From Candidatus Magasanikbacteria bacterium RIFOXYD1_FULL_40_23 (GTDB taxonomy: Bacteria > Patescibacteriota > Patescibacteriia > Magasanikbacterales > GWA2-37-8), in contig MFRA01000008.1 of NCBI GenBank assembly GCA_001783215.1, positions 33,312-97,311 of the forward strand: a DNA stretch of 64,000 nucleotides. The letters are read 5' to 3'. How positions within the stretch are numbered: the first letter of the stretch is position 1; the number at the start of each line of letters is the position of its first letter. Under the pieces are notes generated by a model. That model was given only the letters and a program-made list of their open reading frames with translations. It had not been told where the DNA came from and made no database searches. Made by a program: the position numbers and the translations under genes. Positions 9,813 through 63,264 of this stretch are shown here, piece by piece.

Positions 9813-9943
9813 TTTGTTTCTCCTGGCAGAGGTTACCTATATACAGGATATCTTTAATCCGGTTGTTGGTCAATCCAAACACTTGTTAATTTTGTTTTAC
9901 TTGGGTATACTACATCGAGTCTAATTTTATATATTTTTTTAAT

Positions 9944-10027
9944 CTATAGGTGGCTAAAGCCACATATATACTCATTCGTTCGCAATAAGTTAAATACATT
10001 TAATTTATTGGCTCATTCATTTCGCAT
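9944..10027 (+). repeat. leader-repeat family copy 1 (promoter/5' leader element abutting ATG of TerC gene)
   Basis: tataggtggctaaagccacatata + ctcattcgttcg + hairpin + ctcattcatttcgcat then ATG. Confidence 0.7.
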
Positions 10028-10948
10028 ATGGACGCTCAAACAGCCCTTTGGATTGTATTCGGAGTTGTAATTGCAGGGTTTTTAGCTTTGGATTTGGGCT
10101 ATTTTAATCGCCAAGTTCATAAAGTTGAATTAAAATCCGCCGTTAATCAGTCTTTGTTTTGGGTTGCAATTTCTCTTGGGTTTGGTTTTTTGATATTTTT
10201 ATTTTTGAGCAAAGAATTGGCCGCAGAATTCCTTAGCGCGTATGTAACAGAAAAGATGCTTTCGGTAGACAATCTGTTTGTTATCATGCTTATCTTTAGT
10301 TACTTTAAGCTAGAAGAAAAGTATCATCACCGTGTGTTGTTTTGGGGTATTATGGGGGCGATAGTTTTCCGTGCCATATTTATTGGCTTTGGTTCCATTA
10401 TCATTAGTCAGTTTCATTGGGTGTTGTATATATTTGGTGCCCTGCTTCTTTATACAGGTATCAAGCTTTTGCGCGACAAAAAAGAAGAGCATGTTGATTT
10501 TGAAAAAAATCATATTATTAGATTGGCGCGAAGATTTTTGCCATTTTCTCCAAATCACCATGGTGGTAGGTTTTTTGTTAAGGAAGGCGGCAAAGTAGTT
10601 CTAACATCTCTGTTCTTAATCATGTTATTAGTAGAAGGTACAGATATTATCTTTGCTGTAGATTCTATCCCGGCCGTATTTGCTATTTCTCAAAATCCAT
10701 TTATAGTTTTTACTTCTAATATATTTGCTATCATGGGTCTTCGTGCTTTGTTCTTCCTTATCGAAAGTGTGTTGCACAAGTTCCACCATTTACAAAAGGG
10801 TCTAGCCTTTATCCTTCTCTTTATTGGTCTCAAGATGATATCAGGTATATTTGATTTTCATCTTTCTTCCATTATATCTTTTGGTATAATCATGTTTGCC
10901 CTGGCTTCGTCTATTGTTTTATCTATTATTTTTCCTAAAAAAATTTAA
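10028..10948 (+). CDS. TerC family integral membrane protein
   Basis: SVDNLFV motif and TerC-like helices. Confidence 0.75.
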   Translation: MDAQTALWIVFGVVIAGFLALDLGYFNRQVHKVELKSAVNQSLFWVAISLGFGFLIFLFLSKELAAEFLSAYVTEKMLSVDNLFVIMLIFSYFKLEEKYHHRVLFWGIMGAIVFRAIFIGFGSIIISQFHWVLYIFGALLLYTGIKLLRDKKEEHVDFEKNHIIRLARRFLPFSPNHHGGRFFVKEGGKVVLTSLFLIMLLVEGTDIIFAVDSIPAVFAISQNPFIVFTSNIFAIMGLRALFFLIESVLHKFHHLQKGLAFILLFIGLKMISGIFDFHLSSIISFGIIMFALASSIVLSIIFPKKI

Positions 10949-13704: not shown

Positions 13705-14624
13705 ACCAAGGCAGTTTTTAGGTTTTGTAAATTATTTCTCATTACACTTATATAGTTTTGACCATTTTGAATTTCTTCCTTTGTTAATCCTTCTATTGGG
13801 TTCAATACAAGAGTTTGCGCACCAATTTCGTTGGCAATGGTTTGTGATAGTTTTTGATCCACTACTGTTTCAAAAAATATATATTTTATATTTTTTTCTC
13901 TGGCCAGATTGGATATAGCTGCTATTTGTTTAGGAGAAGGTTCTTCTTCTGGCGATAGTCCTAAAATATGAAAGGTAGTTAGGCCATAATGATTAGCCAG
14001 ATAAGCAAAAGCGTCGTGGGTAGTAATAATTTCGCGTGATTTACAGTTTGTTAAACCAAGTTTAATTTCTTGGTCTAGTTGTAAAAGTTTTATTTTGAAT
14101 GTATCTCTATTTTGATTATACTCTTTTGTGTGAGCGCTATCAATTTTTATTAGGGCGTCGGCGACAATGTCTGCCTCTTTGGCGGCATTAGTTGGGTCAA
14201 GCCAGAAATGAGGATCGTATTGTTCGTCGGGTGAGCTCGGATTGTTAATTTTCAAGTTTCCAAGATGGTCGCTCATTTTTATGGTAGCTACGTTGTTGGC
14301 TGTTAATTCGGGTATAATTTTTTCTGCCCAAGCGTCTACACCTTGGCCGTTTAATATAAATAAATCCGCAGTATAAATTTGAGCCATATCTCTGGGAGTT
14401 GGTTCAAACTCGTGCGGTTCGGCGCCTGGGGGAGTGATGTTAATAACGTTTACATGTTCTCCACCAATATTTTGAGCAAAATCCGCCAATGGATAAAAAC
14501 TAGCAACAATGTTTATTTTGTTTGTGGTGTTGTTTGCGGTAGGCGAAGGTTGTCGGCTAATAGCAACAAAAACAGCGATAGTCACAATTAGAGCGGGGAT
14601 AGCTAGTAAGTATTTATTTTTCAT
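13695..14624 (-). CDS. znuA: metal (zinc) ABC transporter substrate-binding protein, TroA/ZnuA-like
   Basis: Signal peptide, DPHFWLDP and HDAFAYL motifs; ATG at 14622-14624 preferred over TTG at 14630. Confidence 0.8.
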   Translation of the reverse strand: MKNKYLLAIPALIVTIAVFVAISRQPSPTANNTTNKINIVASFYPLADFAQNIGGEHVNVINITPPGAEPHEFEPTPRDMAQIYTADLFILNGQGVDAWAEKIIPELTANNVATIKMSDHLGNLKINNPSSPDEQYDPHFWLDPTNAAKEADIVADALIKIDSAHTKEYNQNRDTFKIKLLQLDQEIKLGLTNCKSREIITTHDAFAYLANHYGLTTFHILGLSPEEEPSPKQIAAISNLAREKNIKYIFFETVVDQKLSQTIANEIGAQTLVLNPIEGLTKEEIQNGQNYISVMRNNLQNLKTALVCP

Positions 14625-14706
14625 AATCAAAATGAGTGAGTGAAATAATCAAAATATTTTGATTATTTATGAACGAATGAGATTATATGGACTTTAGCCC
14701 ATATAC
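14625..14706 (-). repeat. leader-repeat family copy 2 (abuts znuA start, reverse orientation)
   Basis: revcomp reads tatgtatatgggctaaagtccatataatc...aaataatcaaaatattttgattattt...ctcactcattttgatt then ATG. Confidence 0.7.
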
Positions 14707-14794
14707 ATAGAATTATGTAAGATTAACTATTATTATACTAGCACAGGTTTTAAATACTTGCAAGTAAGTTGCATTTATGATATAGTCTGGTTGT

Positions 14795-15621: not shown

Positions 15622-16209
15622 TTATTTTAAGTTGTCTGTGGGTGTGTTAGTATTATTTTTTGTAAAAAATAATTTTATAAAATATATTACGCCGACAAAA
15701 ATTAAGAATATGACAATAGAGTATAAAGCGATGTTCGGAGATGGGGCGGGTGGGCTAGAGATATCTCTCTCTATTTTAATGTCATACGATATAGAAAAGT
15801 TTTTAAAGCCATCCATACTTTTTGGCTCCCCGGTAAGTTTTACGGTATAAGTTCCTTTATGAGGGAAGGTGTAGGGGATTGCCGGGGCAAAAATACCTCG
15901 GTAGGATGTTTTGCCTGTAGCGAGCGGAGAAGAAAAAACGGTTTCGCCGTTGTCTATAACAGATGCTGTGCAATTACAATCTTCTGCTTTAAACCTTTTT
16001 TCTGTATCATTAATCAAAAAAAGTATTTCGGACGGTTGTCCGGCTACGGGTTTCTCATCCGGATTTATATGAATAAGAGCACTTATTGTGCCCTCTGCTT
16101 TTAGTTCATGCGCCAAAACTTTTGGAGTGGGAAAGTGTGCGCTAGATCCAAACAGTATAATAATGTTGGTAAGTAGAAATCTTGTGAGAAAGGTTGAAAA
16201 TATTTTCAT
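15622..16209 (-). CDS. exported protein with C-terminal membrane anchor, possible metal-binding
   Basis: Signal peptide, His-rich start of mature part (AHFPTP..AHEL), C-terminal TM; in zur neighbourhood. Confidence 0.45.
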   Translation of the reverse strand: MKIFSTFLTRFLLTNIIILFGSSAHFPTPKVLAHELKAEGTISALIHINPDEKPVAGQPSEILFLINDTEKRFKAEDCNCTASVIDNGETVFSSPLATGKTSYRGIFAPAIPYTFPHKGTYTVKLTGEPKSMDGFKNFSISYDIKIERDISSPPAPSPNIALYSIVIFLIFVGVIYFIKLFFTKNNTNTPTDNLK

Positions 16210-16290
16210 ATACGAAATGAGAGAGCGAAATAATGAGCTTGCTCAATTATTTCCGAGCGAATGAGTATATATGCGGCTTTAGCCCCTATA
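16210..16290 (-). repeat. leader-repeat family copy 3 (abuts start of 15622..16209)
   Basis: revcomp: actataggggctaaagccgcatatatactcattcgctcgg + hairpin + ctctctcatttcgtat then ATG. Confidence 0.7.
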
Positions 16291-20255: not shown

Positions 20256-20403
20256 TATATGGGCTTGGCCGCATATATTCTCGTTCGTAAATAACTAAAC
20301 AAGTTTAGTTATTTAACTCACTCATTTCGATTATATTAAAATATATTCTCATTCGTTCGGAAGCAACCAAGCAAGCTTGTTATTTCGCTCACTCATTTCG
20401 ATT
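20256..20403 (+). repeat. leader-repeat family, two tandem copies (second lacks GC palindrome) ending at ATG 20404
   Basis: tatatgggcttggccgcatatattctcgttcg..ctcactcatttcgattat + atatattctcattcgttcgg..ctcactcatttcgatt then ATG. Confidence 0.7.
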
Positions 20404-20739
20404 ATGAAAAAAGTACTTCCGCTTGATGAAAAATTGGTGGTCAGAATGATGAACAAGTTTGATGCTCAGGTCATTGCCTCTGATTCCAAAGAAAAGCTGG
20501 CCAAACCAGAGGTAAGAGCTAGTATGATTGAGCAGGCGGTAGATGAAATATTGGCTACTAAAAATAGCATCCATTTAGTAAATCGTGAAGCGTATATACA
20601 AGCTGTGAGCAGTCGTTTATTTAGAGAAGAAAAAATAGTAGAAATGGGTGAGGGTGCCTATTTGGAAATGATGAAAGGTGCAAGAGCGGCCGAGCTCAGG
20701 GCTCCGCAGGAAGGTGAAGGTTATCTAAAGAATAAATAA
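20404..20739 (+). CDS. hypothetical soluble protein
   Basis: ORF starting at ATG that abuts leader repeat; ORF-track start 20377 lies inside the repeat. Confidence 0.45.
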   Translation: MKKVLPLDEKLVVRMMNKFDAQVIASDSKEKLAKPEVRASMIEQAVDEILATKNSIHLVNREAYIQAVSSRLFREEKIVEMGEGAYLEMMKGARAAELRAPQEGEGYLKNK

Positions 20740-39005: not shown

Positions 39006-39018
39006 TATTCAGTATGTT

Positions 39019-39094
39019 TATAGGGGCTAAAGCCGCATATAAACACACTTCGCTCGAAAATATTTTAGCAAGCTAAATATTTTGCTCACTCAGT
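39019..39094 (+). repeat. leader-repeat family copy 6 (abuts mreB ATG)
   Basis: tataggggctaaagccgcatataaac..cttcgctcg + hairpin + ctcactcagt then ATG. Confidence 0.7.
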
Positions 39095-53031: not shown

Positions 53032-53640
53032 ATGATTACTTCTATCCCATCAAAGAAAATATTAGTAAAACTTTATTTAGGGCAAAAGAAATCGGCTCAG
53101 GATATTGCTGATATTTTTAAATGCTCTCTAAATAAGATTTGGTACTGGATGGGGAAGTATAAAATAAAATCAAGAACAATTAGCGAGGCAATTTATAGAC
53201 AGAAAAATCCAAAAGGAGATCCGTTCAAAATAAAATATCCAAGTACACTGAAAGAAGCCATGTTATTCGGTTTTGGTTTGGGCTTATATTGGGGCGAGGG
53301 AACAAAAGCCAATAAATATGCGGTAAGACTGGGAAATACTGATTATAGATTAATAAAAAAATTTATTAAGTTTTTAATAAAAGTATTCACCATTAAAAAG
53401 AAAGATCTGAAATTTAGTTTACAGCTATTTACCGATATTAATCCAAAAACAGCACTTAACTTTTGGGTGAATAGTCTGAACGTGACTAGGGATCAATTTT
53501 ATAAGAGTACCATTACGAAGTCAGTCAGAAAAGGAACATATGGAAAGAAAAGTGAATATGGAGTTTTAACAGTTTATTATCATAATAAGAAAATGAGAGA
53601 TGTATTAGTAAGTCTTTTGGATAAAGAAAAAAGTAAGTAA
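53032..53640 (+). CDS. LAGLIDADG-family homing-endonuclease-like protein with N-terminal HTH
   Basis: Single MLFGFGLGLYWGEGT motif (LAGLIDADG variant with GEG) followed by KFIKFL helix; stop codon abuts intron-containing tRNA. Confidence 0.5.
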   Translation: MITSIPSKKILVKLYLGQKKSAQDIADIFKCSLNKIWYWMGKYKIKSRTISEAIYRQKNPKGDPFKIKYPSTLKEAMLFGFGLGLYWGEGTKANKYAVRLGNTDYRLIKKFIKFLIKVFTIKKKDLKFSLQLFTDINPKTALNFWVNSLNVTRDQFYKSTITKSVRKGTYGKKSEYGVLTVYYHNKKMRDVLVSLLDKEKSK

Positions 53641-53901
53641 TGCCGTTGTAGCTCAGATGGTAGAGCATTTCCATGGTGGGTCGCCAATGACTCCTGCCCA
53701 TTGTGAGGGAAATCTTGCAATGTTACCCGAATTACGGTTAATAGCCATTACAATGGCCAAGACCGTGGCGTGAGTACGCCCGAACGACTGACAAGGGGAG
53801 CTAAGCTCGAAAGAGTATGCTCAAGATACAGTCTAGCCCTCTAATTAAAAGTAGAGGTGTAAGCGAAGGAAAAGGTCTCGGGTTCAATTCCCGACAACGG
53901 C
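53641..53901 (+). tRNA. tRNA-Thr(GGU) interrupted by about 188-nt intron between positions 36 and 37
   Basis: Exon 1 gccgttgtagctcagatggtagagcatttccatggt; exon 2 aaggaaaaggtctcgggttcaattcccgacaacggct; stems pair canonically once 53677-53864 is removed. Confidence 0.7.
53677..53864 (+). ncRNA. small group I intron in tRNA-Thr anticodon loop
   Basis: 5' exon ends in U; P1 can form between exon catggt and intron gccaatg; R-like element gaACGACUgAcAAGg, S-like element AAGAUAcAGUCu, terminal G before 3' exon. Confidence 0.6.
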
Positions 53902-54054
53902 TCAAGCTCTGAACTATGATATAAGGAACATTTTTCGTGAGCGTTAATATAAAAATAAGCGCTGTACCAGCGCTTGAAATTACGTCGTTCGTCCTAGATG
54001 AAGGCAAGTCTTCGCCTAGGAACTTACTAGAAATTATAAATTAAAATAAAAAAT

Positions 54055-54337: not shown

Positions 54338-54408
54338 AGGCCTGTAGTTTCAATGGTAAAACATCGGTCTCCAAAACCGAGGTTCTCGGTTCGAATCCGA
54401 GCGGGCCT
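54338..54408 (+). tRNA. tRNA-Trp(CCA)
   Basis: Acceptor aggcctg/cgggcct, anticodon loop ctCCAaa, T-loop ttcgaat. Confidence 0.85.
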
Positions 54409-55837
54409 GCACAGACCGAAATAGGGCGATTTCCGGTACAATTCGGTAGCCCCCTTTCGCTAAACAATCAAATTTTTTGCCTTTCACCGTAAAGTTCGAG
54501 CCTATTTTTTTAAGAAATGTTCGAATTTGGAGAAAATCGCCGTCCGCGGCGATTTTTTTGGCTTGGCAACTGGATAAAATGAATTCCCTCATCGGTTCGA
54601 GCCAATCGTTGCCCTTGTTCTTAACTTCCTTAATTTTGGCTTCCAGATCAAGTTTGTCGTTGAGGAGTTTTTCTTTTTTGTTTATGTATTCTGGTTTATC
54701 AATAATGCCATCCAAATGAGAATCAAGGAGTTTATCTAGCTTTGTCTTAATAGGCATTATTTGTCCTTCTACGGCCTGAACAAGGGCGTCGGACGACTGG
54801 ATTGCGGATGCTTGCTCCTCGTTGAGTTTAGCAAGCAATTTTTCGGTCCAGTCGTCTGACAAAGAAACTTTTTGCAGAGTATCTTTAAACTGGCTCACCA
54901 ATTCTTCTTCGCGGATATATTTTTCATCACAGTTAGTTCGCTTTTTAGTACAGCGGTAATAAATATGTCCTTTGTGCTTTTCGGCGGTAATGGCTCGTCC
55001 GCAAGATCCACAGCTCATTAGGCCGGTAAAAATATATCCGTGGCTGCTTTTTTTTCGGCGCTTGCCCCGCAAGAGCATTACCGCTTGCGCATCGTCAAAA
55101 AGTTTCTTGGTGATTATCGGTTTATGCGTACCCTGGTGTAGTTCGTCGTTAAAACGAAACACGCCAGTGTAAAAAGGATTTTTGAGAATATGCTGCATGT
55201 CGCCCGGCATCATTATTTTGTTTGTCTTAGTGCGAATATCAAATTTTTGTATTAGTTGTTCAAAAGTATATTCGCCGGTCGCATACAATTCAAAAATCCT
55301 TTTTACAAGTTTATGCTTTTCGGGGTCGGGGAGTATGGTATGGTGGCGCAGGTCGTTATTATATCCAAATGGGGCTTTTCCCGGCCAAATTCCTTTGCGG
55401 AGTTTTTGTCTTATTCCACGCTTTACATTTTCGCTTAGGTTATCTACATAATATTTGCTTTGGCCGAAAGAAATATTAAGCATAAACTTTCCTTGCGGTG
55501 TGTTGTCAAACCAAAACGTTGGAAATTTGAGGGAATTTATTTTACCAGTGTCCAACATGTAAATAACCCGACCGCCATCCACACTGTTGCGGGCTAGGCG
55601 GTCGGGATGCCAAGCCAAAATGCCGTCGGCCTCGCCGGCATCAATTCGCGATAACATTTCGCCGAACAAAGTTCGGCCAGGTTGTTTGGCAGTTTTTGCC
55701 TCGCAAAGCGAGGCGACGATTTCAAGTTTTTCTTTGACGGCAAATTCTTTTAACTCGTCGATTTGAGCGTCGATTGACATTACTTGACGCTCTTCCGATT
55801 CGCTAGACTTGCGAGCGTATAAAAAATATTTGGCCAT
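54350..55837 (-). CDS. large serine recombinase (resolvase domain + recombinase domain + zinc ribbon + coiled coil)
   Basis: YARKSS catalytic Ser region, CGSCG...C..C zinc ribbon, long coiled coil; last about 35 codons are encoded by inverted repeat A and the frame runs antisense through tRNA-Trp, so true stop uncertain. Confidence 0.8.
   Translation of the reverse strand: MAKYFLYARKSSESEERQVMSIDAQIDELKEFAVKEKLEIVASLCEAKTAKQPGRTLFGEMLSRIDAGEADGILAWHPDRLARNSVDGGRVIYMLDTGKINSLKFPTFWFDNTPQGKFMLNISFGQSKYYVDNLSENVKRGIRQKLRKGIWPGKAPFGYNNDLRHHTILPDPEKHKLVKRIFELYATGEYTFEQLIQKFDIRTKTNKIMMPGDMQHILKNPFYTGVFRFNDELHQGTHKPIITKKLFDDAQAVMLLRGKRRKKSSHGYIFTGLMSCGSCGRAITAEKHKGHIYYRCTKKRTNCDEKYIREEELVSQFKDTLQKVSLSDDWTEKLLAKLNEEQASAIQSSDALVQAVEGQIMPIKTKLDKLLDSHLDGIIDKPEYINKKEKLLNDKLDLEAKIKEVKNKGNDWLEPMREFILSSCQAKKIAADGDFLQIRTFLKKIGSNFTVKGKKFDCLAKGGYRIVPEIALFRSVQARSDSNREPRFWRPMFYH
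54406..54510. repeat. inverted-repeat A (blocks X 54406-54480 and Y 54481-54510), starts at 3' end of tRNA-Trp
   Basis: Exact reverse complements found at 55892-55966 (X') and 56094-56120 (Y'). Confidence 0.85.
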
Positions 55838-55891
55838 ACAATTTTATTTATTATAGAAAAGTTTGCTTTTGGTGTCCGCCGAGCGGACAAA

Positions 55892-55966
55892 GGCAAAAAA
55901 TTTGATTGTTTAGCGAAAGGGGGCTACCGAATTGTACCGGAAATCGCCCTATTTCGGTCTGTGCAG
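55892..55966. repeat. X' = reverse complement of block X
   Basis: ggcaaaaaatttgattgtttagcgaaagggggctaccgaattgtaccggaaatcgccctatttcggtctgtgcag. Confidence 0.85.
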
Positions 55967-56070
55967 CGGGGATACGAAAAATTACGAGGGGAATTTATGG
56001 GGGCCCAATAACGGGACGGGCGGAAGGAGGGGTTGGGGGAGGAATTCCGCCCGCCCACCGGCGCGCTTTT
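55964..56070. repeat. inverted-repeat B, left copy (about 107 bp, G-rich, GC-rich)
   Basis: Reverse complement present at 59826-59933 with about one mismatch; many G3-G5 runs. Confidence 0.85.
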
Positions 56071-56093
56071 TAAAAACTGCCAAACAACCTGTT

Positions 56094-56120
56094 AAAAAAA
56101 TAGGCTCGAACTTTACGGTG
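56094..56120. repeat. Y' = reverse complement of block Y (duplicate of recombinase codons KKIGSNFTV)
   Basis: aaaaaaataggctcgaactttacggtg; flanked with X'-B1 by a 12-bp inverted repeat gtttgcttttgg (55861) / ccaaaagcaaac (56122). Confidence 0.8.
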
Positions 56121-56248
56121 GCCAAAAGCAAACTTTTTTTATTATACCATATTAATAATTATCTTAGGTGGACAACTTATCTCTAAATATACTTGTAATC
56201 AAAGGGATAGTATGGTAAAATGTCCCTATCATAACTAATAAAAATATT

Positions 56249-56464
56249 ATGGAAGATCTTAAAATATTAAAAAACATTGATAAAAAACTATCAGCTTTAT
56301 TAGCACTTTCCATAGCTTCATGGTTCGGAAGCGCCGACGAAAAATTGAAGACTAAGCCGGAGACAATCCTTTCAACTGTTGGGATTGAAACAAGCGAAAT
56401 AGCTCTGATTTTAGGAAAAAAACTTGACGCTGTTAGAAAATCTATTCAAAGATCTAAAAAATAA
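56249..56464 (+). CDS. mini-HTH protein, paralogue 1 of 4
   Basis: 71 aa; KKLSALLALS...G....IALILG pattern shared with 56467, 56672, 57805 genes; TTGTAA-17-TAAAAT promoter upstream. Confidence 0.55.
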   Translation: MEDLKILKNIDKKLSALLALSIASWFGSADEKLKTKPETILSTVGIETSEIALILGKKLDAVRKSIQRSKK

Positions 56465-56466
56465 AT

Positions 56467-56670
56467 ATGGATAAAGAATTATTACAAACACAAAAAGAAA
56501 TCGTAATGTTATTAGCTATTTTGGTTAGACGGGGAGTTATGCAATCTAGTATCATTGCTGAAATGGATGCGGTGGGACTATCTCCGAAAAGGATTGCTGA
56601 ACTTTTGGGTACCAGCTCTAACACAGTAAGTGTCGCGCTTTCAAACGCACGTAAGAAAAAAAATAAATAA
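56467..56670 (+). CDS. mini-HTH protein, paralogue 2 (clearest HTH: LSPKRIAELLGTSSNTVSVALSNARKK)
   Basis: 67 aa; sigma-r4/resolvase-like HTH. Confidence 0.6.
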   Translation: MDKELLQTQKEIVMLLAILVRRGVMQSSIIAEMDAVGLSPKRIAELLGTSSNTVSVALSNARKKKNK

Positions 56671-56671
56671 T

Positions 56672-56863
56672 ATGTCAGGAAAAAAGCTAGAAGAAAAAAT
56701 GGATAATTTAGAAGCGATAAAACGTCTATTAGTTTTGTTATTAATCAAGCAGGGGGTTGGAATAGACGCGGTAGCCGATGTTTTAGAGGTAGGAGTAGCA
56801 ACGGTTAGCAGGATGGTGCCGCAAAAAAAGTTAAAAAAAGGGAATAAAATTACTATAGACTAA
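56672..56863 (+). CDS. mini-HTH protein, paralogue 3
   Basis: Start at ATG 56672 one nt after stop of previous gene; ORF-track 56630 start overlaps upstream gene. Confidence 0.5.
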   Translation: MSGKKLEEKMDNLEAIKRLLVLLLIKQGVGIDAVADVLEVGVATVSRMVPQKKLKKGNKITID

Positions 56864-56885
56864 GAATGGTTTTGAACAATTTTTT

Positions 56886-57791
56886 ATGACTCTGAACGTG
56901 TCCGATGTTAGATCGAATGGGCCTGAGCAGATACAACATGCCGCCCAATCCTTAGGAAGATCACCGCAGAGAATTGCGGTTTTTGAAGCCATATACAAAG
57001 GTGGTAGTACGCCTAAATCTGTAAAAATTTTAGCTAATTTATGTTTGGCAGAAATTAAGGATGGGAATCATCGAGAAATAAGAATTGCGCAAGAAGCAGC
57101 CTACTTGTTTAATCATGGAATGGTCGAAAAGTACGTTGATGAAAAAACACACAAATTATGTTATAAAAAAGTTGATTTTTATAAATCACACAAAAAACAA
57201 ATAGTTGAATTCGCGAGAGATCCTAAGAAAATGAAAAAAATGATCAGCAAACGCACGCCTATTGTTCGTGAAGTTAAATCAAGAACAGTTGTATATAAAA
57301 GCCCGATAAATGCAAAACAAATTTCAATTGATGATATTGATAATTTTCTTAAAGTAAAAAAAACGGGCGGTAGTAGCGCCTCGGCCAAAACAATTTTAGA
57401 AAAAAACATAAAGAATGGCTTTAAAAAAATTATTGGCGAAACCGGTAAATTTACAGATTGGGGTGGTGAGAGAAATGATTTATTTACAACACGGGTGAGG
57501 TTAGATAAAAAAAGAATTTCAGCTGCGATAGCATTTAAGGGCCGTGCGACGCAAGGAATATTAACGCCTAAAAAGCTTGGGAAGAATGGAGATCAGATTA
57601 ATAGGCTTTTTACTAGCCCAGCCCAATTATTCCTAGTTGTTTATCATAGCGAAATTGATCAGTCGGTGCTAGAACAAATGAAAGCCTTTGCTGTTGCTGT
57701 AGGACAGGCAGGTCAAAAGATTTACTACGGAATCGTTGATGGTAAGGACTTAAATGCAATAATTACAGCTTATCCTAATTTTTTTAAATAA
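56886..57791 (+). CDS. paralogue-type HTH N-domain fused to Mrr-like (PD-(D/E)xK) restriction-nuclease-like C-domain
   Basis: SPQRIAVFEAIYKGGSTPKSV resembles mini-HTH paralogues; C-part TDWGGERNDL...ISAAIAFKGR resembles Mrr catalytic GDGGID...QAK core (tentative). Confidence 0.5.
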   Translation: MTLNVSDVRSNGPEQIQHAAQSLGRSPQRIAVFEAIYKGGSTPKSVKILANLCLAEIKDGNHREIRIAQEAAYLFNHGMVEKYVDEKTHKLCYKKVDFYKSHKKQIVEFARDPKKMKKMISKRTPIVREVKSRTVVYKSPINAKQISIDDIDNFLKVKKTGGSSASAKTILEKNIKNGFKKIIGETGKFTDWGGERNDLFTTRVRLDKKRISAAIAFKGRATQGILTPKKLGKNGDQINRLFTSPAQLFLVVYHSEIDQSVLEQMKAFAVAVGQAGQKIYYGIVDGKDLNAIITAYPNFFK

Positions 57792-57804
57792 TTAGTAGTT
57801 ACTT

Positions 57805-57996
57805 ATGGACAATAATAAAGAGCTCAATAAAAAATTGGATGCGTTAGTTGATCTTTCCTTGCATTCCCTGGTTTTTTCCATGTATATGTCTGGAAACACA
57901 ATGGATCAGATATGTAAAAATTTACACATACACAAGACACGAGTTGTAGAATTGTTGAAAGGTTTGGAAAAGAATCGACAAACAAATAATAAATAA
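57805..57996 (+). CDS. mini-HTH protein, paralogue 4
   Basis: 63 aa; KKLDALVDLSLHSLV...TRVVELLKGLEK. Confidence 0.5.
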   Translation: MDNNKELNKKLDALVDLSLHSLVFSMYMSGNTMDQICKNLHIHKTRVVELLKGLEKNRQTNNK

Positions 57997-58009
57997 TAAT
58001 CCAAACAAA

Positions 58010-58936
58010 ATGAAAAGCTACTATCGCATAATGCTTGGAAGAGGGAGTGTTTACGCTAAAGAGGCGCATGACGGTAATTATATCGGCGCTGGCTGGTTTG
58101 AGAATGTAGACTTAAGCAACGATCTTCCAGAAAATCGTAGGGATTTTAACAAAAAATTTATACCGTTATACTTGGAAAAAAATCCTGGTAAATCAAAAAT
58201 CGCCGCGGGATTGGCCTGTGGTATGTTATACACAGTGGCCAAAGGTATCTCTGCTGGTGATATTGTTTTATGCCCGGACGGGCAGCGAAATTATTGGATA
58301 GGAGAAGTTCTGGGAGATTATCAGTTTCAACCTGGCACGAACTTGCCACATAGACGCACAATTCGCTGGTTTCCCAAAGCCATACCAAGAGATGAAATGA
58401 GCGAAGCGTTGCAGTACGCAACGGGATCTATAGGTGCTGGCGCAAATGTATCTGGCTTTGCAGACGAAATTGAAAATTTTATTTCAGGAACTCGTCCAGC
58501 AACAATTATTTCAACGGATGAAACTGTTGAGGATGCGGGTATTTTTGCGCTTGAAAAACATCTAGAAGATTTCCTAGTACAAAATTGGAAATCTACAGAG
58601 CTTGGAAAGAAGTATGATATTTATGAGGAGGGTGGAGAATCTGTTGGCCAACAATATCCAAGTGATACAGGGCCTATTGATATTCTAGCGATAAGTAAAG
58701 ATAAAAAAGAGATTCTTGTGGTAGAATTAAAAAAGGGAAGGATTGGCGATGTCGTAGTTGGTCAAATACAACGTTATATGGGTTTTGTTAAAGATGAGTT
58801 AGTCGAAGACGACCAGATAGTTCGTGGTGTAATTATTGCTTTTGAAGACGATATTAAAGTGCGCCGAGCTCTTTCGGTCGCGCAAAATATTGATTTCTAC
58901 ACATACAAAGTTAGTTTTAAACTTGAGAAAAAATAA
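58010..58936 (+). CDS. PUA/EVE-like N-domain fused to NucS/RecB-type PD-(D/E)xK nuclease; candidate modification-dependent restriction enzyme
   Basis: N-part YYRIMLGRGSVYAKEA..NYIGAGW...AGDIVLCPDG...YWIGEV (PUA-like pattern); C-part GPIDILAISKDKKEILVVELKKGRIGDVVVGQIQRYMGFV (D..E.K, QxxxY). Confidence 0.55.
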   Translation: MKSYYRIMLGRGSVYAKEAHDGNYIGAGWFENVDLSNDLPENRRDFNKKFIPLYLEKNPGKSKIAAGLACGMLYTVAKGISAGDIVLCPDGQRNYWIGEVLGDYQFQPGTNLPHRRTIRWFPKAIPRDEMSEALQYATGSIGAGANVSGFADEIENFISGTRPATIISTDETVEDAGIFALEKHLEDFLVQNWKSTELGKKYDIYEEGGESVGQQYPSDTGPIDILAISKDKKEILVVELKKGRIGDVVVGQIQRYMGFVKDELVEDDQIVRGVIIAFEDDIKVRRALSVAQNIDFYTYKVSFKLEKK

Positions 58937-58937
58937 T

Positions 58938-59750
58938 ATGAACAACAAAGACGATCAAAAATTAGTCGATGATTTTCTTTTTAATTATTATACAAAGGGT
59001 GTCTCTCTTAATTTGGATGAAAGTGACTTTATTGAGCTGAAAGGAAGCCATCCTTTTCTTAATTTGTTTAATATAGATGCAGTTAAAAAAGCCATAGCAG
59101 GAAGAAATAAAATTGAGGCTGAAAATTATGAAAAAAGCAGGAATAATGTAGAAGAGCTACAAAATGTTAGCCAATATTTTAAGGATAAGGCAATCGAAGA
59201 TTTATTAGAAAAACATTTTAAAAAGGCAGGCAAAAAGGAAAAGGAGTATATTAAAAATGAGCTTGAGAGTGAATTATATAAACACAGGACTTCCGATACA
59301 TTTGATGGGGAGCTTTACATGGATTTAATAAAAGGTGTCGATGGATTTAAAACCAAGTTTTTTTGGTCAAAAATAAAAAAAGTATTAGATTATGCCTGGT
59401 TTTTATTAATAAAATTTTCAACCTTGGCTGTAGTATTGGCAATTTATGATGTAGTTTACAAAGATTTTGAAGTGGTAGTGGCAAGCATATCTATTTTAAT
59501 ATATGTTTCTTTAACGGGGTTTATACAGTTATATACATTTTATACTGATTTGCATAGGATTGAGTATCTGAACGAGTTTAATGAGCTAAAAAAGATGATT
59601 AAACCGAACTATGCGTACGAAATAAAAGAGAAGGAATTATTAACTAGTATCAATAAAATAAATAAAGGGAATGTAAAAATTTTAATAAATTTAATATTTA
59701 ACTCCATTATTTATTTAATAGCAATTTTTCATTTGCTCAGCTTACTGTGA
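58938..59750 (+). CDS. coiled-coil protein with C-terminal 2-3 TM helices (possible membrane effector)
   Basis: ATG at 58938 directly after upstream stop; ORF-track 58836 start overlaps the previous gene. Confidence 0.45.
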   Translation: MNNKDDQKLVDDFLFNYYTKGVSLNLDESDFIELKGSHPFLNLFNIDAVKKAIAGRNKIEAENYEKSRNNVEELQNVSQYFKDKAIEDLLEKHFKKAGKKEKEYIKNELESELYKHRTSDTFDGELYMDLIKGVDGFKTKFFWSKIKKVLDYAWFLLIKFSTLAVVLAIYDVVYKDFEVVVASISILIYVSLTGFIQLYTFYTDLHRIEYLNEFNELKKMIKPNYAYEIKEKELLTSINKINKGNVKILINLIFNSIIYLIAIFHLLSLL

Positions 59751-59825
59751 GTTCTAAAGAGGTTCGAGGTGTACGTATAGATACGCAATAAAAGAATTTG
59801 CCGTCAAAGAAAAACTTGAAATCGT

Positions 59826-59933
59826 CAAAAAGCGCACCGGTGGGCGGGCGGAATTCCTCCCCCAACCCCTCCTTCCGCCCGTCCCGTTATTGGGCCCCCA
59901 TAAATTCCCCTCGTAATTTTTCGTATCCCCGCT
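59826..59933. repeat. inverted-repeat B, right copy
   Basis: Reverse complement of 55964-56070; ORF 59754..60371(-) and ORF 55932..56186(+) share peptides only because they read through the repeats and are spurious. Confidence 0.85.
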
Positions 59934-60026
59934 GCGATATCCTAAATGGCTATAATAGCCATTTTTTGGTTCTAATATTGACAGGTATTCAGAATTACAG
60001 TATAACTTGCCCCAAGGAGACGCACC

Positions 60027-60464
60027 ATGTCTGAGCCAGAAAAAAACACTGCAAAATATTGCTATTGCGGAAGGCGCCATGAAACGGATGAACAGGTTCA
60101 ATCCTGTCAGTTGCTGGGCATACCTACTCCGCGGTATTTGAAGGGGGAGCAGATCCAATTCTGGGGAGGTGAGCTCATGCACAAGGCTACTATCCTTGAG
60201 CTTCAAGCGGTACGAGATCCAGACTCGGATTATGATCCTCATAATGATCCGATTTACTATTTGGTCGAAGTGCATGATGGGCACAGACCATACTGCGTTG
60301 TAAGTGAAGACGATCCGTCCCGCCCTATCACAGAGTATGATGTTGATGGTATTGTCGGAAAAATTGGTCAAGACGACCTACTGGTCAAACCACCGCAGGT
60401 GGAACGGGTGTGTTCCTTCGAGGAGCGCAACAATATTTTCGATACTGTGGTGCGCGCTGCTTAA
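60027..60464 (+). CDS. Cys-containing hypothetical protein in monocistronic cassette
   Basis: TTGACA-17-TATAAC promoter, AGGAGA SD, hairpin terminator at 60484-60505; GC higher than native genes. Confidence 0.5.
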   Translation: MSEPEKNTAKYCYCGRRHETDEQVQSCQLLGIPTPRYLKGEQIQFWGGELMHKATILELQAVRDPDSDYDPHNDPIYYLVEVHDGHRPYCVVSEDDPSRPITEYDVDGIVGKIGQDDLLVKPPQVERVCSFEERNNIFDTVVRAA

Positions 60465-60625
60465 AACACGTTGCGTCGCATTCAAAGAGCTCACTTAGGT
60501 GAGCTCGCTTTATTATATGGAGTAAATTGCAAACACTGTTTTTTCGGTGTTTTTGTTTTTAGTATTGACTTTTTATAATTATTATATTAATATCTTGTGG
60601 CCAAATAGGAAAGGGAGAACAGCCA

Positions 60626-61320
60626 TGTCAACAGGCGTTGGATTTTCTCTGCTTGATTTTCAGTTCGGCCATCTCTATGAGCATAATCATGAGAACAAAA
60701 CGACCAGAGTTTATGGGTTTACCCCAGAAACTTTCCTGCTGTTACCAGGTGGTCACACGCACTTTGGGTTTGTCCTTAGTGGGCATATTGTTTTGGGCTA
60801 TGCTAATGGTAGCAAAATGCCGCTTCCTAAAGGTTGCCATTTCTGTGTAAAAGAGGTTGCTACTGTCGAAAGTTATGGCACGGGGATTGTCAGCTCTGCG
60901 GAAGGCTTTGCTGGCATGAATCAGTTTGGTGGTCCGTTGGAAAACGAGGGCAGATTCCGGTATGTGGACGGTTGTTCCAATAGTTTGCTTGTTCACCCAT
61001 TGCGTAAGGGTGATCCTTGTTTTCATCATCTGCATTTGGATCCTCATGTCAAGGAGATGCCACATACGCACCCATCATTACGCACGCTGGTTGTGTATCG
61101 AGGGGAGGGCGAGGCAATTGTGCCTGGTTTGGATACGGTTCATATCAAAAGAGGTGACGCTTTCGTTATAGAGCCAGACTGTGTTCACAGCTTCAACACT
61201 GGAGAGGCGGGTATGAGTTTGGTTACTTACCATCCCGATAGTGTGGTTGGGTATACCGACGACAACAACCCGATGCTTAACAATACGATCTCAGGCGGTA
61301 AAAGTGCCAGACGAGATTAA
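60626..61320 (+). CDS. bicupin-fold protein
   Basis: Start at ATG 60626 preceded by AAGGGAGA and TTGACT-17-TAATAT; cupin motifs HHLHLDPH...MPHTHP and GDAFVIEPDCVHSFN; terminator gcccacttatctgcctaaagcaggtaggtgggc after stop. Confidence 0.6.
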
Positions 61321-61494
61321 GGGATGTAAAGCACCCACTGTGCCCACTTATCTGCCTAAAGCAGGTAGGTGGGCTTTTTAATTTAAATGTATTTTGAGAT
61401 GTAAATTATAACCCCTCCTGGAATACTCTTTATAGACAAAAATAATCCAAAAAGATATAATTCAAATAATAATATTTGAACCTAACTTTAACAT

Positions 61495-61803
61495 ATGCCA
61501 GAAAAAGAAGTGCCGTTAGCCATAATAATTGAAGCGTCTACAACCGTAGTCGAATTGCTATACAATATTGAGCGAGCGGGTGGAATTAAAAAAAGCAATG
61601 GAAAATTCCAAAATTTAGATGAATTACGAAATGAAATTATTCTTCCGCCAAATACAGATTTATATACAGTAAAAATTATGATAAACATTTTGCCTAGAAT
61701 TATGTCTGGAGTAACCAACACCGACGGTTTTAGAAAAAAATTATCAGAACTTTTATTGAAAGAACTGGAAGCAAAAAAATTAGAACTAGGTGGATCAAAT
61801 TAA
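61495..61803 (+). CDS. hypothetical protein (native AT-rich composition, no SD)
   Basis: 102-aa ORF. Confidence 0.4.
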   Translation: MPEKEVPLAIIIEASTTVVELLYNIERAGGIKKSNGKFQNLDELRNEIILPPNTDLYTVKIMINILPRIMSGVTNTDGFRKKLSELLLKELEAKKLELGGSN

Positions 61804-61928
61804 AATTTTACGATACGCATAAAAAGATAGCTAGCTTGGCTGTCTTTTTTAGTATAGACAAACCATATTCTTCTTGTTAAGCTCTTGTTATTCTGCAGTA
61901 CCAATCCCCGAAAGGGAAGGAGTCGACA

Positions 61929-62129
61929 ATGACCAGCGATTACGAGAGGACTGTAATTAACCCCGGTGACCTTGTTTCCAAGATGGGGTATAAAGCATGC
62001 GTGGGGAGCTATGGCAATTCGCGGGCCGTATTGATTACCCCTCAGCCCGAGGGTAAGTTTCGTGGTTTGGTTGGCCACAGGTGGAACGATCATGTTTCTG
62101 CGTGCCATGCTAGACAAGCGGGTTGTTGA
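61929..62129 (+). pseudogene. possible N-terminal fragment of the PurM-like gene (frame 0) with strong SD
   Basis: GGGAAGGAG SD then ATG 61929; frame differs by +1 from 62062 ORF and overlaps it by 68 nt. Confidence 0.3.
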
Positions 62130-63129
62130 AACAACCCAGAATGATGGCGCTGGCGGCAAGCCGCAGTTCTTTACTTTGGTGGGAACCCCAGAGGCATTTC
62201 GTATGCTGGGTTGGGAGGTTATTGTCATGTGCAATGATGATGTTGCTTGTGGCGGCGGTTTGCCCGTCGTCTTCTCGAGCAATCTAGATATCAAAGAGAT
62301 TACGGCCGAGAACCTGCACTTGTGTGAAGCGTTGATGAGTGGATTTGCCAAGGCGCTTGCCGCCTCTGGTACGGTGCTGATCACTGGTGAGACGGCCGTG
62401 ATGCGACACAGCATTACCGCCTTCTGCGATCGCAGTAATCCTGCGCAGCTCATCGTGAACTGGGCAGGAACGTGTTTGGGCCTTATGCGAACGGATAGAC
62501 CGCCGAACGGTTCTACCATTCGTCCTGGTATGGCGGTTGTTGGTTTGGGTGAAGATGGTTATCGTTGCAATGGCGGTACCGCTCTCACCAACCTGCTTTT
62601 GCAGACTTGGGGACCGCGTATTGAAGACGTGCTGGCAAGCCAAGAAGCGATGGAGTTTGCGAATCAGCTTGTGATTCCTTCACGAAGCTATGCAAGAATG
62701 CTTTCGTATCTTACCGGTTGGCAAAACAATGGCATTCCCGGCGATCCGGTTGCGCGCATTCACGGAATGGCGCACATAACGGGTGGTGGCGTGTGGAACA
62801 AGTTTCGTGAACTGCTTCCGGTGGGAGTGGGTGCGAATTTGCACAACATGCTAAATCCTCCCGAGGTTCTGCTTCGTGCTCAAGAGCTAAGTTATCGACT
62901 TGGTGGCGAGAAAGTTATTACCGACAAGCAGTGCTATGGCACATTCCACGGTGGGTGTGGTGCGTTGTTGGTAGTGGATCCGCAAGATGCAGATTTGGTT
63001 TGTTGGGAAGCGTCTAATTTTGGCCATAGAGCCACGGTTGTGGGCGAGACCACAGAATCTATCGGTAATGAGGTTGTGATTCAATCTCGTTTCCTTCGAG
63101 GCAAATTGCTTTCTTCTCTTCACGAGTAG
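62062..63129 (+). CDS. PurM-like (AIR synthase related) protein
   Basis: Aligns by eye to E. coli PurM: VIVMCNDDVACGG vs VAMCVNDLVVQGA, TGETAVM vs GGETAEM, AHITGGG vs AHLTGGG; GTG start in ORF track. Confidence 0.65.
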   Translation: MVWLATGGTIMFLRAMLDKRVVETTQNDGAGGKPQFFTLVGTPEAFRMLGWEVIVMCNDDVACGGGLPVVFSSNLDIKEITAENLHLCEALMSGFAKALAASGTVLITGETAVMRHSITAFCDRSNPAQLIVNWAGTCLGLMRTDRPPNGSTIRPGMAVVGLGEDGYRCNGGTALTNLLLQTWGPRIEDVLASQEAMEFANQLVIPSRSYARMLSYLTGWQNNGIPGDPVARIHGMAHITGGGVWNKFRELLPVGVGANLHNMLNPPEVLLRAQELSYRLGGEKVITDKQCYGTFHGGCGALLVVDPQDADLVCWEASNFGHRATVVGETTESIGNEVVIQSRFLRGKLLSSLHE

Positions 63130-63264
63130 AACAGCAGTTAAACTAGTATATTTTCTGTAAAACAAAAGGAGAAAAAGGAGGGCAATTAAAAAATCATCAA
63201 GCAGTTGGTGATTTTTTAATTTTAAAATATAGACACCGCCAATCTAAACCGCTACAATAGCTTA

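Follow-up and report, generated by a model that had tools for sequence, protein, structure and literature searches.

The window examined in this study, a stretch of 64,000 nucleotides of DNA from Candidatus Magasanikbacteria bacterium RIFOXYD1_FULL_40_23, carries at the 3' end of a tRNA-Trp gene a 5.5-kb segment (54407-59935), which very probably constitutes an integrated bipartite mobile element of the large serine recombinase (LSR) type with an internal inverted copy of its attachment site (attP) and an invertible defence cargo. An earlier note on this DNA had suggested a mobile, defence-carrying, LSR-driven system beside tRNA-Trp, and our analysis supports this suggestion. On the plus strand, the parts of the locus follow each other in the order tRNA / a b (LSR body) c h d (LSR start) e hp a' / B c' b' e' (cargo) d' B' / host, in which letters with and without a prime form inverted pairs. 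The coordinates are given in Table 1.

Attachment sites of the element

The repeats a and B overlap by 4 nt and both end at one core. This core (CTGC) is common to three junctions, which are the left border of the element (attL), the internal inverted attP and the right border (attR). At the left border, the crossover core lies within the last bases of tRNA-Trp (CTGCA) and repeat a begins inside the final 4 bases of this gene, as the earlier note had seen (tRNA 54338-54410, repeat from 54407). Judged by these junctions, the LSR recombined attP (B' / CTGC / a) with the host site attB (tRNA end / core / terminator region), which gave attL and attR. On the same evidence, a complete second copy of attP has been retained in the element, inverted, between the two modules. 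Both attP arms, P' (a) and P (B'), therefore occur twice, in opposite orientations, and it is these duplicated arms that appear as the long inverted repeats. One pair (a/a') encloses the LSR module (54485-55888), the other (B/B') the cargo module (56072-59826).

When the left side of attL was joined to the right side of attR, the reconstructed attB was identical to the sequence that follows tRNA-Trp in a related organism from Hainich groundwater (locus L021), which carries no recombinase there. The empty tRNA-Trp site in a related genome that the earlier note had envisaged has thus been found. In such an empty site, the host terminator hairpin located directly after attR would adjoin tRNA-Trp.

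All long inverted repeats described previously reproduced on self-comparison with slightly shifted limits. The outermost pair now reads 54407-54489 / 55884-55966 (83 nt, 98% identity), and within it a and a' match exactly. For the match between B and B', the number expected by chance is 0. The three long pairs of the earlier note are all present, but two further perfect pairs (38-nt d/d' and 20-nt c/c') had been missed, and a pair reported as 12 bp is real but measures 16 nt (e/e', 55857-55872 / 56122-56137). The interpretation of these repeats had to be changed. The layout had been likened to that of Gin/Hin/Pin-type systems and shufflons. It is not such a switch with dedicated inversion sites, and the repeats turned out to be the P and P' arms of attP. 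Repeated inversion or duplication, which they had been taken to imply, is not needed, since one copy of each arm belongs to attL or attR and the other to the internal inverted attP. Similarly, the block formed by a', B and b', which had been treated as one unit, is made up of the internal attP followed by vestigial recombinase-gene fragments.

Conserved architecture in related loci

Genome loci with 49-93% identical LSRs were detected in many lineages of the candidate phyla radiation (CPR), in Schleiferia, Thermodesulfovibrio, Gammaproteobacteria, Kiritimatiellia and other groups, and LSRs that are 50-60% identical occur across CPR, Bacteroidota, Nitrospirota and Proteobacteria. By self-comparison, the same set of inverted repeats was found at the same positions in about 60 of 80 loci (67 loci were evaluable), and almost every exception was a contig cut short at the LSR. 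A large number of contigs end 200-300 nt upstream of the LSR gene, where the arms lie. The 3' end of the LSR gene adjoins that of a convergent tRNA gene (Ser, Gln, Trp, Arg, Gly) in almost every locus scanned. When 15 divergent loci were read base by base, the triple of attL, inverted attP and attR was present in all of them, and the core was located in the last tRNA bases (for instance CCGCCA for tRNA-Ser). The tips of the P arms are conserved and bear a T-loop-like motif (TTCGTATCC at the tip of B in the window), in which TTCGAA and the core are about 5-6 nt apart, compared with about 11 nt in the tRNA half-site. This 5-bp offset of the motif is reminiscent of the difference in half-site spacing that is known for att sites of LSRs. 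In addition, repeat b carries a DNA motif (GGCTCGAAC) that is kept in all clades of the family. As a separate observation, the motif ATCGGCTCGAAC near the 3' end of the LSR gene (window 54485-54513 and all related loci) is conserved at the nucleotide level even between LSRs that are only about 50% identical, and it is similar to the tRNA T-loop GGTTCGAA.

Two loci contain tandem arrays of two complete cargo+LSR composites that end at tRNA-Ser (L036, 9441-16163; L047, 9423-13710). In L036 the second LSR of the array is intact (509 aa), and in L047 it has decayed. These arrays indicate that the composite is the mobile unit and that a resident attL can be re-targeted. They also bear on a different origin of the architecture, serial insertion of two units that each had a perfectly palindromic att site, with the internal attP as the seam between them. 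In that case, an LSR unit (circle junction a'/a, centre TGCA) would have entered the tRNA end first and a non-autonomous cassette (circle junction B'/B, centre CTGCAG) would then have entered the junction between a' and the host. The resulting set of junctions (T/a, a'/B, B'/Y) would be formally identical to that of the window, and both circle junctions would be perfect palindromes around the core. The tandem arrays show a resident T/a junction to be re-usable as target, and cargo modules can be wholly different between close relatives with 93% identical LSRs. However, we found neither an LSR unit without an adjoining cargo unit nor a chain with several cargo units per LSR, and the arrays of L036 and L047 repeat complete cargo+LSR pairs. 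Moreover, the tips of a and B are unlike, so that one LSR would need to recognise two different palindromes. Taken together, we consider serial insertion unlikely.

Among viral contigs only one distant LSR match was obtained, and Rfam reported no family at the locus beyond the tRNAs. Full-text literature searches brought up neither an LSR element that contains an inverted attP nor a tRNA-targeting LSR family carrying defence cassettes. Read as one bipartite element, the locus belongs to a large family of compact serine-integrase elements that target tRNA genes, have thousands of LSR homologues and have apparently not been described before. These elements shuttle restriction-modification and other defence cassettes, and their hosts include CPR bacteria, whose mobile-element biology is poorly known. 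For dozens of orthologues, attP, attB and core are readable straight from genomes, which is useful for integrase tools.

The recombinase gene and its hairpins

The recombinase had been described as an LSR of roughly 500 aa, and we found an intact protein of 495 aa with three domains, which is not a remnant. As is characteristic of large serine recombinases, an N-terminal resolvase catalytic domain (PF00239, E=3.5e-19, residues 5-150, YARKSSESEE motif) is followed by a Recombinase domain (PF07508, E=2.4e-13) and a zinc ribbon (PF13408, E=6.5e-11). In the PDB, the catalytic domain matched 3guv and 3g13, and 7939 homologues of the LSR were retrieved at E<1e-20. The gene is convergent with the tRNA, and its open reading frame (ORF) continues across b and a and enters the tRNA gene on the antisense strand. 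A promoter-like site is located upstream of the gene (55878-55850, minus strand).

On its minus strand, repeat a codes for LSR residues ~452-477, which belong to the conserved C-terminus. We also considered that a might be native host DNA, and this is true only in part: the tRNA-proximal ~50 nt resemble the native region downstream of the tRNA in L021 and L022. Repeat a is not simply host DNA, because it also codes for the conserved LSR C-terminus in all clades.

Within the coding region, the hairpins h (GCCTCGC TTT GCGAGGC, exactly between d and c) and h2 flank repeat c, which forms a single-stranded linker between them. For h, compensatory changes were seen at 3 of 7 pairs and 99.5% were paired. 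Over 26 distinct sequences, h and h2 covary, with 98% of the cells paired and 32 double-change cells; none of 500 shuffles reached as high a value and slid controls were 20-45% paired. Across the Ser/Trp clade of the family, this pairing (window 55661-55714, LSR codons ~42-59) is kept by compensatory, mostly synonymous changes.

Orientation of the cargo module

Copies of the locus were gathered by exact-protein look-up from several independent Rifle groundwater metagenome assemblies and from GCA_001783315.1 and were mapped onto the window. The arrangement of the window was found in megahit contigs assembled at k=141, which exceeds every repeat, in an IDBA scaffold and in the NCBI contig, and the orientation of the window was seen in L001, L004, L007 and L009. 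In three independent contigs of the same species (L006, L008, L010), the segment 56072-59826 is opposite to its flanks. In L006 and L008, the reverse complement of the downstream host DNA is joined via B to c'-b'-e'-cargo, and in L010 cargo-d'-B' is joined to a-hp-e'-LSR. In an orientation census, in which each locus's own d, c and b pieces were probed against its upstream region, about 24 genomes of the Ser/Trp clade had the orientation of the window and one (L046) was flipped; the cargo ORF of L046 lies on the LSR strand, which matches a flipped cassette. The cargo module exists in both orientations in natural populations.

The earlier note had named two segments that might occur in alternative orientations. 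For the 3.7-kb segment between B and B' this is correct (L006, L008, L010, L046), but the recombinase segment (54511-55891) was never found inverted, the LSR being convergent to the tRNA in 29 of 29 loci. Consistently, the 90% cluster of the LSR contained only 495-aa members and no variant with a different tail, and a junction diagnostic of a flipped LSR module had 0 matches in the metagenomes of the Joint Genome Institute (JGI).

Patchworks of short inverted fragments with microhomology at their borders look like template-switch chimeras, and several mapped contigs stop at or within B. An artefact of assembly or of multiple displacement amplification (MDA) is nevertheless hardly conceivable. 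The identical sequence was obtained from at least four independent assemblies made with three assemblers, including k=141 contigs longer than any repeat, and the patchwork recurs in the same order in dozens of genomes that are unrelated and come from different studies. The identity of the k141, IDBA and NCBI contigs together with the conserved architecture elsewhere led us to rule out such a chimera.

A recombinase located outside an inverted-repeat-bounded segment that is known in both orientations might also represent a switch devoted to phase variation, like those of the Gin/Hin/Pin systems or of shufflons, in which the enzyme serves for cassette inversion and the element is not mobile. We consider this very unlikely. 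With its 495 aa and its Recombinase and Zn-ribbon domains, the enzyme is an LSR and not an invertase of ~190 aa. The core at which the repeats stop is also present at the tRNA end, and a relative has the empty site. The family occurs at five tRNA types, in many phyla and with unrelated cargo, which means that it moves, and 24 of 25 genomes share the same orientation.

In the integrated element, the cassette would flip when the internal attP recombines with attR. Both sites contain the core and the entire B arm, and recombination between them therefore regenerates the two original sites. The reaction might be catalysed by the LSR at the cores or by homologous recombination of the host (RecA) within the 109-nt arms. 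The sole mismatch between B and B' is located 9 nt from the inner end, so that the position of the inversion crossover is not discriminated. Expression probably depends on the orientation of the cassette. Cargo operon and LSR gene are divergent in the common orientation, and the LSR-gene strand then carries antisense copies of b and c ~250-300 nt upstream of the LSR gene. In the flipped orientation, the cargo operon points into the LSR gene.

Cargo operon

In agreement with the earlier note, the cargo is a same-strand operon with a composition unlike the backbone (GC content 0.27-0.38 vs ~0.40 in the surroundings). Its 308-aa nuclease matched the PADLOC model PDLC04799 (PDC-S02) with E=2.9e-151 over residues 1-307 of 308 and, by this match, is a member of the candidate anti-phage defence family PDC-S02. 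In the strain variant L008/L014 (ERZ4902888 NODE_3010), the cassette of which is in the flipped orientation, a 201-aa HTH_24/C2185-like_N gene and a 165-aa ORF replace the gene of the 270-aa membrane protein beyond window position 58957. In L023, the closest relative, the LSR is 93% identical and the repeat patchwork is the same, but the cargo is wholly different. The other cassettes (n=27, 53 larger ORFs) contain mostly components of type I, II and III restriction-modification systems, and also HNH nucleases, AbiEii, RadC, LexA-like peptidases and mad2. At the e-proximal end of many cassettes, there is a conserved gene for a ~70-aa XRE-type helix-turn-helix (HTH) protein, which is a plausible regulator of the element. 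The e/e' copies are located upstream of both divergent promoters, which fits an operator, and e is a candidate for this function.

Inverted fragments of the recombinase gene in the cassette

In the Ser/Trp clade, the cargo module always has antisense d beside its distal B arm and e-b-c beside its proximal B arm, and the c'-b'-e' block was present in 10 of 10 loci. The Gln and Gly clades are without these pieces. Since e resembles the beginning of a', the c'-b'-e' block can be read as a vestigial, internally deleted and inverted fragment of the LSR gene. The end of a, hp and e fold into one extended hairpin (z=-3.5), and palindromes analogous to hp are present in L036, L030 and L042. The break of the cassette copy between d and c coincides exactly with the 17-nt hairpin h of the intact gene. 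When the cassette copies were compared with the LSR genes, they matched their own gene best or tied-best in 15 of 19 loci for c and in 12 of 19 for b, and for d in only 2 of 18. For c and b, this agreement with the LSR gene of the same element suggests concerted evolution or selection for identity.

Several simpler readings of these fragments were discarded. We tried b'/e' as attP with a/b and e/hp-a' as attL and attR, and these three junctions have no common crossover dinucleotide. An origin as inverted dimer was ruled out by the order of the fragments, which is not mirror-image. A simple nested single-strand fold of all repeats was also ruled out, the order of the pairs being pseudoknotted, and a 187-bp stem and a 49-bp b+c helix cannot both bridge the same two junctions as straight helices.

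A further idea, which we regard as doubtful, is that the retained inverted attP and the ordered inverted LSR fragments are functional parts of an element that is competent as a single strand, either DNA or RNA. On one strand, B'.a would pair with a'.B, which would rebuild a duplex attP and bring the ends of the element together. The pairs b/b' and e/e' (with hp) and the pairs c/c' and d/d' (with h) would close two multi-helix junctions, one at either end of the stem. CPR bacteria depend on competence-type DNA uptake, and DNA taken up as a single strand could circularise or present attP without an excisionase. Alternatively, an RNA fold could gate expression of the recombinase by cassette orientation. 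If true, this would add a new principle to the biology of serine-recombinase elements, in which an attachment site that templates itself is coupled to a defence cassette that can be inverted.

Weighing of the integrated-element interpretation

Several observations weigh against the interpretation as an integrated element with an internal attP and an invertible cassette. The flipped contigs stem from assemblers with k possibly below 109 nt, and for each of them a mis-resolved repeat is possible; three independent cases, L046 and the strain variant L008 make this explanation unlikely. The inner junctions (a/b, e/b, e/hp-a', c/h/d, B/c', d'/B') are without a common crossover dinucleotide and are therefore not simple LSR products. 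Excision by attL x attR would yield a circle with two inverted attP sites. The empty attB had 0 matches in the JGI metagenomes and no excised circle of the same species was found, so that for this particular copy mobility is something we infer. L010 contains the B'/a junction, but a flipped integrated state would give this junction too. Among the small HTH proteins of the cargo, no candidate for a recombination directionality factor was recognised. Finally, equal use of both attP copies predicts that the LSR faces away from the tRNA in half of the insertions, and this was seen in 0 of 29 loci. Thus, the internal attP is not used for integration, or it arises or acts differently.

Features of the locus and its surroundings

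Table 1. Features of the LSR element at tRNA-Trp and of its borders (window positions; a slash marks a junction)
Feature	Position	Strand	Sequence or basis
tRNA-Trp (CCA), host half of attL	54338-54410	+	ARAGORN; Rfam 61.5 bits
LSR gene, 495 aa	54350-55837	-	Pfam Resolvase + Recombinase + Zn_ribbon_recom
attL junction, tRNA/a	54403-54417	+	GGGCCTGC/ACAGACC
Repeat a, P' arm of attP	54407-54484	+	exact inverted pair with a' (55889-55966)
Repeat b, LSR 3' coding piece	54485-54513	+	inverted pair with b' (56092-56120), 29 nt, 100%
Hairpin h2, within LSR coding region, flanks c	55661-55677	-	terminator-like prediction; covariation
Repeat c, LSR codons ~47-53	55678-55697	+	perfect inverted pair with c' (56072-56091), 20 nt
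Hairpin h, within LSR coding region	55698-55714	-	fold z=-2.0
Repeat d, LSR codons ~29-41	55715-55752	+	perfect inverted pair with d' (59789-59826), 38 nt
Repeat e, just upstream of LSR promoter	55857-55872	+	inverted pair with e' (56122-56137), 16 nt
Palindrome hp, between e and a'	55873-55888	+	GTCCGC CGA GCGGAC; fold z=-3.5
Repeat a', inverted P' arm copy	55889-55966	+	inverted-repeat search
Internal inverted attP core, B'/a	55956-55972	-	minus strand CCCGCTGC/ACAGACC
Repeat B, inverted P arm copy	55963-56071	+	pair with B' (59827-59935), 109 nt, 99%, one mismatch
c'-b'-e' block, proximal end of cargo module	56072-56137	+	three inverted-repeat pairs
Cargo operon, same-strand	56249-59750	+	ORFs, Pfam, PADLOC
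Four small HTH proteins	56249-56464, 56467-56670, 56672-56863, 57805-57996	+	
301-aa protein of unassigned family	56886-57791	+	
308-aa DUF8426/NucS_C PD-(D/E)XK nuclease (PADLOC PDC-S02)	58010-58936	+	
270-aa membrane protein	58938-59750	+	
Repeat d', LSR-gene fragment, distal end of cargo module	59789-59826	+	inverted pair; orientation census
Repeat B', P arm of attP, part of attR	59827-59935	+	inverted-repeat search
attR junction, B'/host	59925-59942	+	CCCGCTGC/GATATCC
Host terminator hairpin, directly after attR	59944-59964	+	terminator prediction
Reconstructed attB	left of attL + right of attR		GGGCCTGC/GATATC
Sequence around the B'/a (attP) core			CCCGCTGCACAGACC
Sequence of the tRNA-Trp/terminator (attB) site			GGGCCTGCGATATCC

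Outside the element, a few further observations were made. At 53639-53903, a tRNA-Thr(GGT) is apparently split by an intervening sequence of 188 nt (53678-53865); its halves are 100% identical to the intact tRNA-Thr of L023, and ARAGORN made no call. Rfam gave a weak group I intron match at 53592-53856 (E=0.045). Between tRNA-Tyr and the split tRNA-Thr, there is a 202-aa ORF (53032-53640) without Pfam match, which is absent from the close relative L023, where only ~70 nt are present; its LGLYWGEGTK motif is reminiscent of LAGLIDADG homing endonucleases. A dispersed repeat of ~70-90 nt that resembles a miniature inverted-repeat transposable element occurs at 9942-10030, 14617-14709, 16205-16290, 20341-20408 and 39017-39062, and one copy (L023 7670-7737) is located inside the b piece of the related element of L023. 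Downstream of the element (60000-63200), patches with a GC content of 0.47-0.54 vs ~0.40 in the backbone cover a 145-aa ORF, a cupin-like ORF and an AIRS (purM-like) gene; these patches may have been acquired separately.

Comparison with known systems

The internal inverted attP, the invertible cassette and the covarying in-gene hairpins point to a mechanism of control or transfer that has not been described for serine integrases. Integrative elements of the LSR type (phiC31/Bxb1/A118-type prophages, SCCmec Ccr, Tn4451 TnpX, PLE Int) have the same Resolvase + Recombinase + Zn ribbon enzyme, a conservative exchange between attP and attB at a short common core that gives attL and attR, a recombinase gene at one end of the element and half-sites that are related to each other. 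Unlike these elements, the one described here keeps a complete inverted attP inside, and both of its modules are bracketed by perfect inverted repeats of 80-400 nt. It is strictly bipartite, with an LSR module and a cassette and no phage or conjugation genes. Its target is the last bases of a tRNA, and the LSR ORF crosses the attachment arm and runs on along the antisense strand of the tRNA gene.

Gin, Hin, Pin and Cin share with our element a serine recombinase beside an inverted-repeat-bounded segment with two orientations. However, these systems have small invertases, 26-bp gix/hix sites, a Fis enhancer and a non-mobile segment, whereas here an LSR is combined with att arms of 78-109 nt and the whole unit is an integrative element. 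The 495-aa LSR is not a serine invertase of ~190 aa with a C-terminal HTH. Shufflons (Rci) involve a tyrosine recombinase and multiple copies of one short sfx site that separate several segments; here, the recombinase is of the serine type and each repeat pair is distinct and present exactly twice. Tandem integration of temperate elements (attL-element-attP-element-attR) also places an attP between attL and attR, but in tandem lysogens this internal attP is direct and lies between identical copies, whereas here it is inverted and lies between two different modules.

The folded single-stranded attP of CTXphi (XerCD) and the attC sites of integrons are alike in that two inverted att copies on one strand can pair to a duplex site if single-stranded. 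This likeness is an analogy only, since tyrosine recombinases and single-strand exchange are involved there and a single-stranded form of the element described here is hypothetical. Finally, tRNA-linked defence islands and tycheposon-like elements resemble our element as small, cargo-variable tRNA islands with defence genes, but they have direct repeats of the 3' part of the tRNA and mostly tyrosine integrases and are without an internal inverted attP or an invertible cassette.

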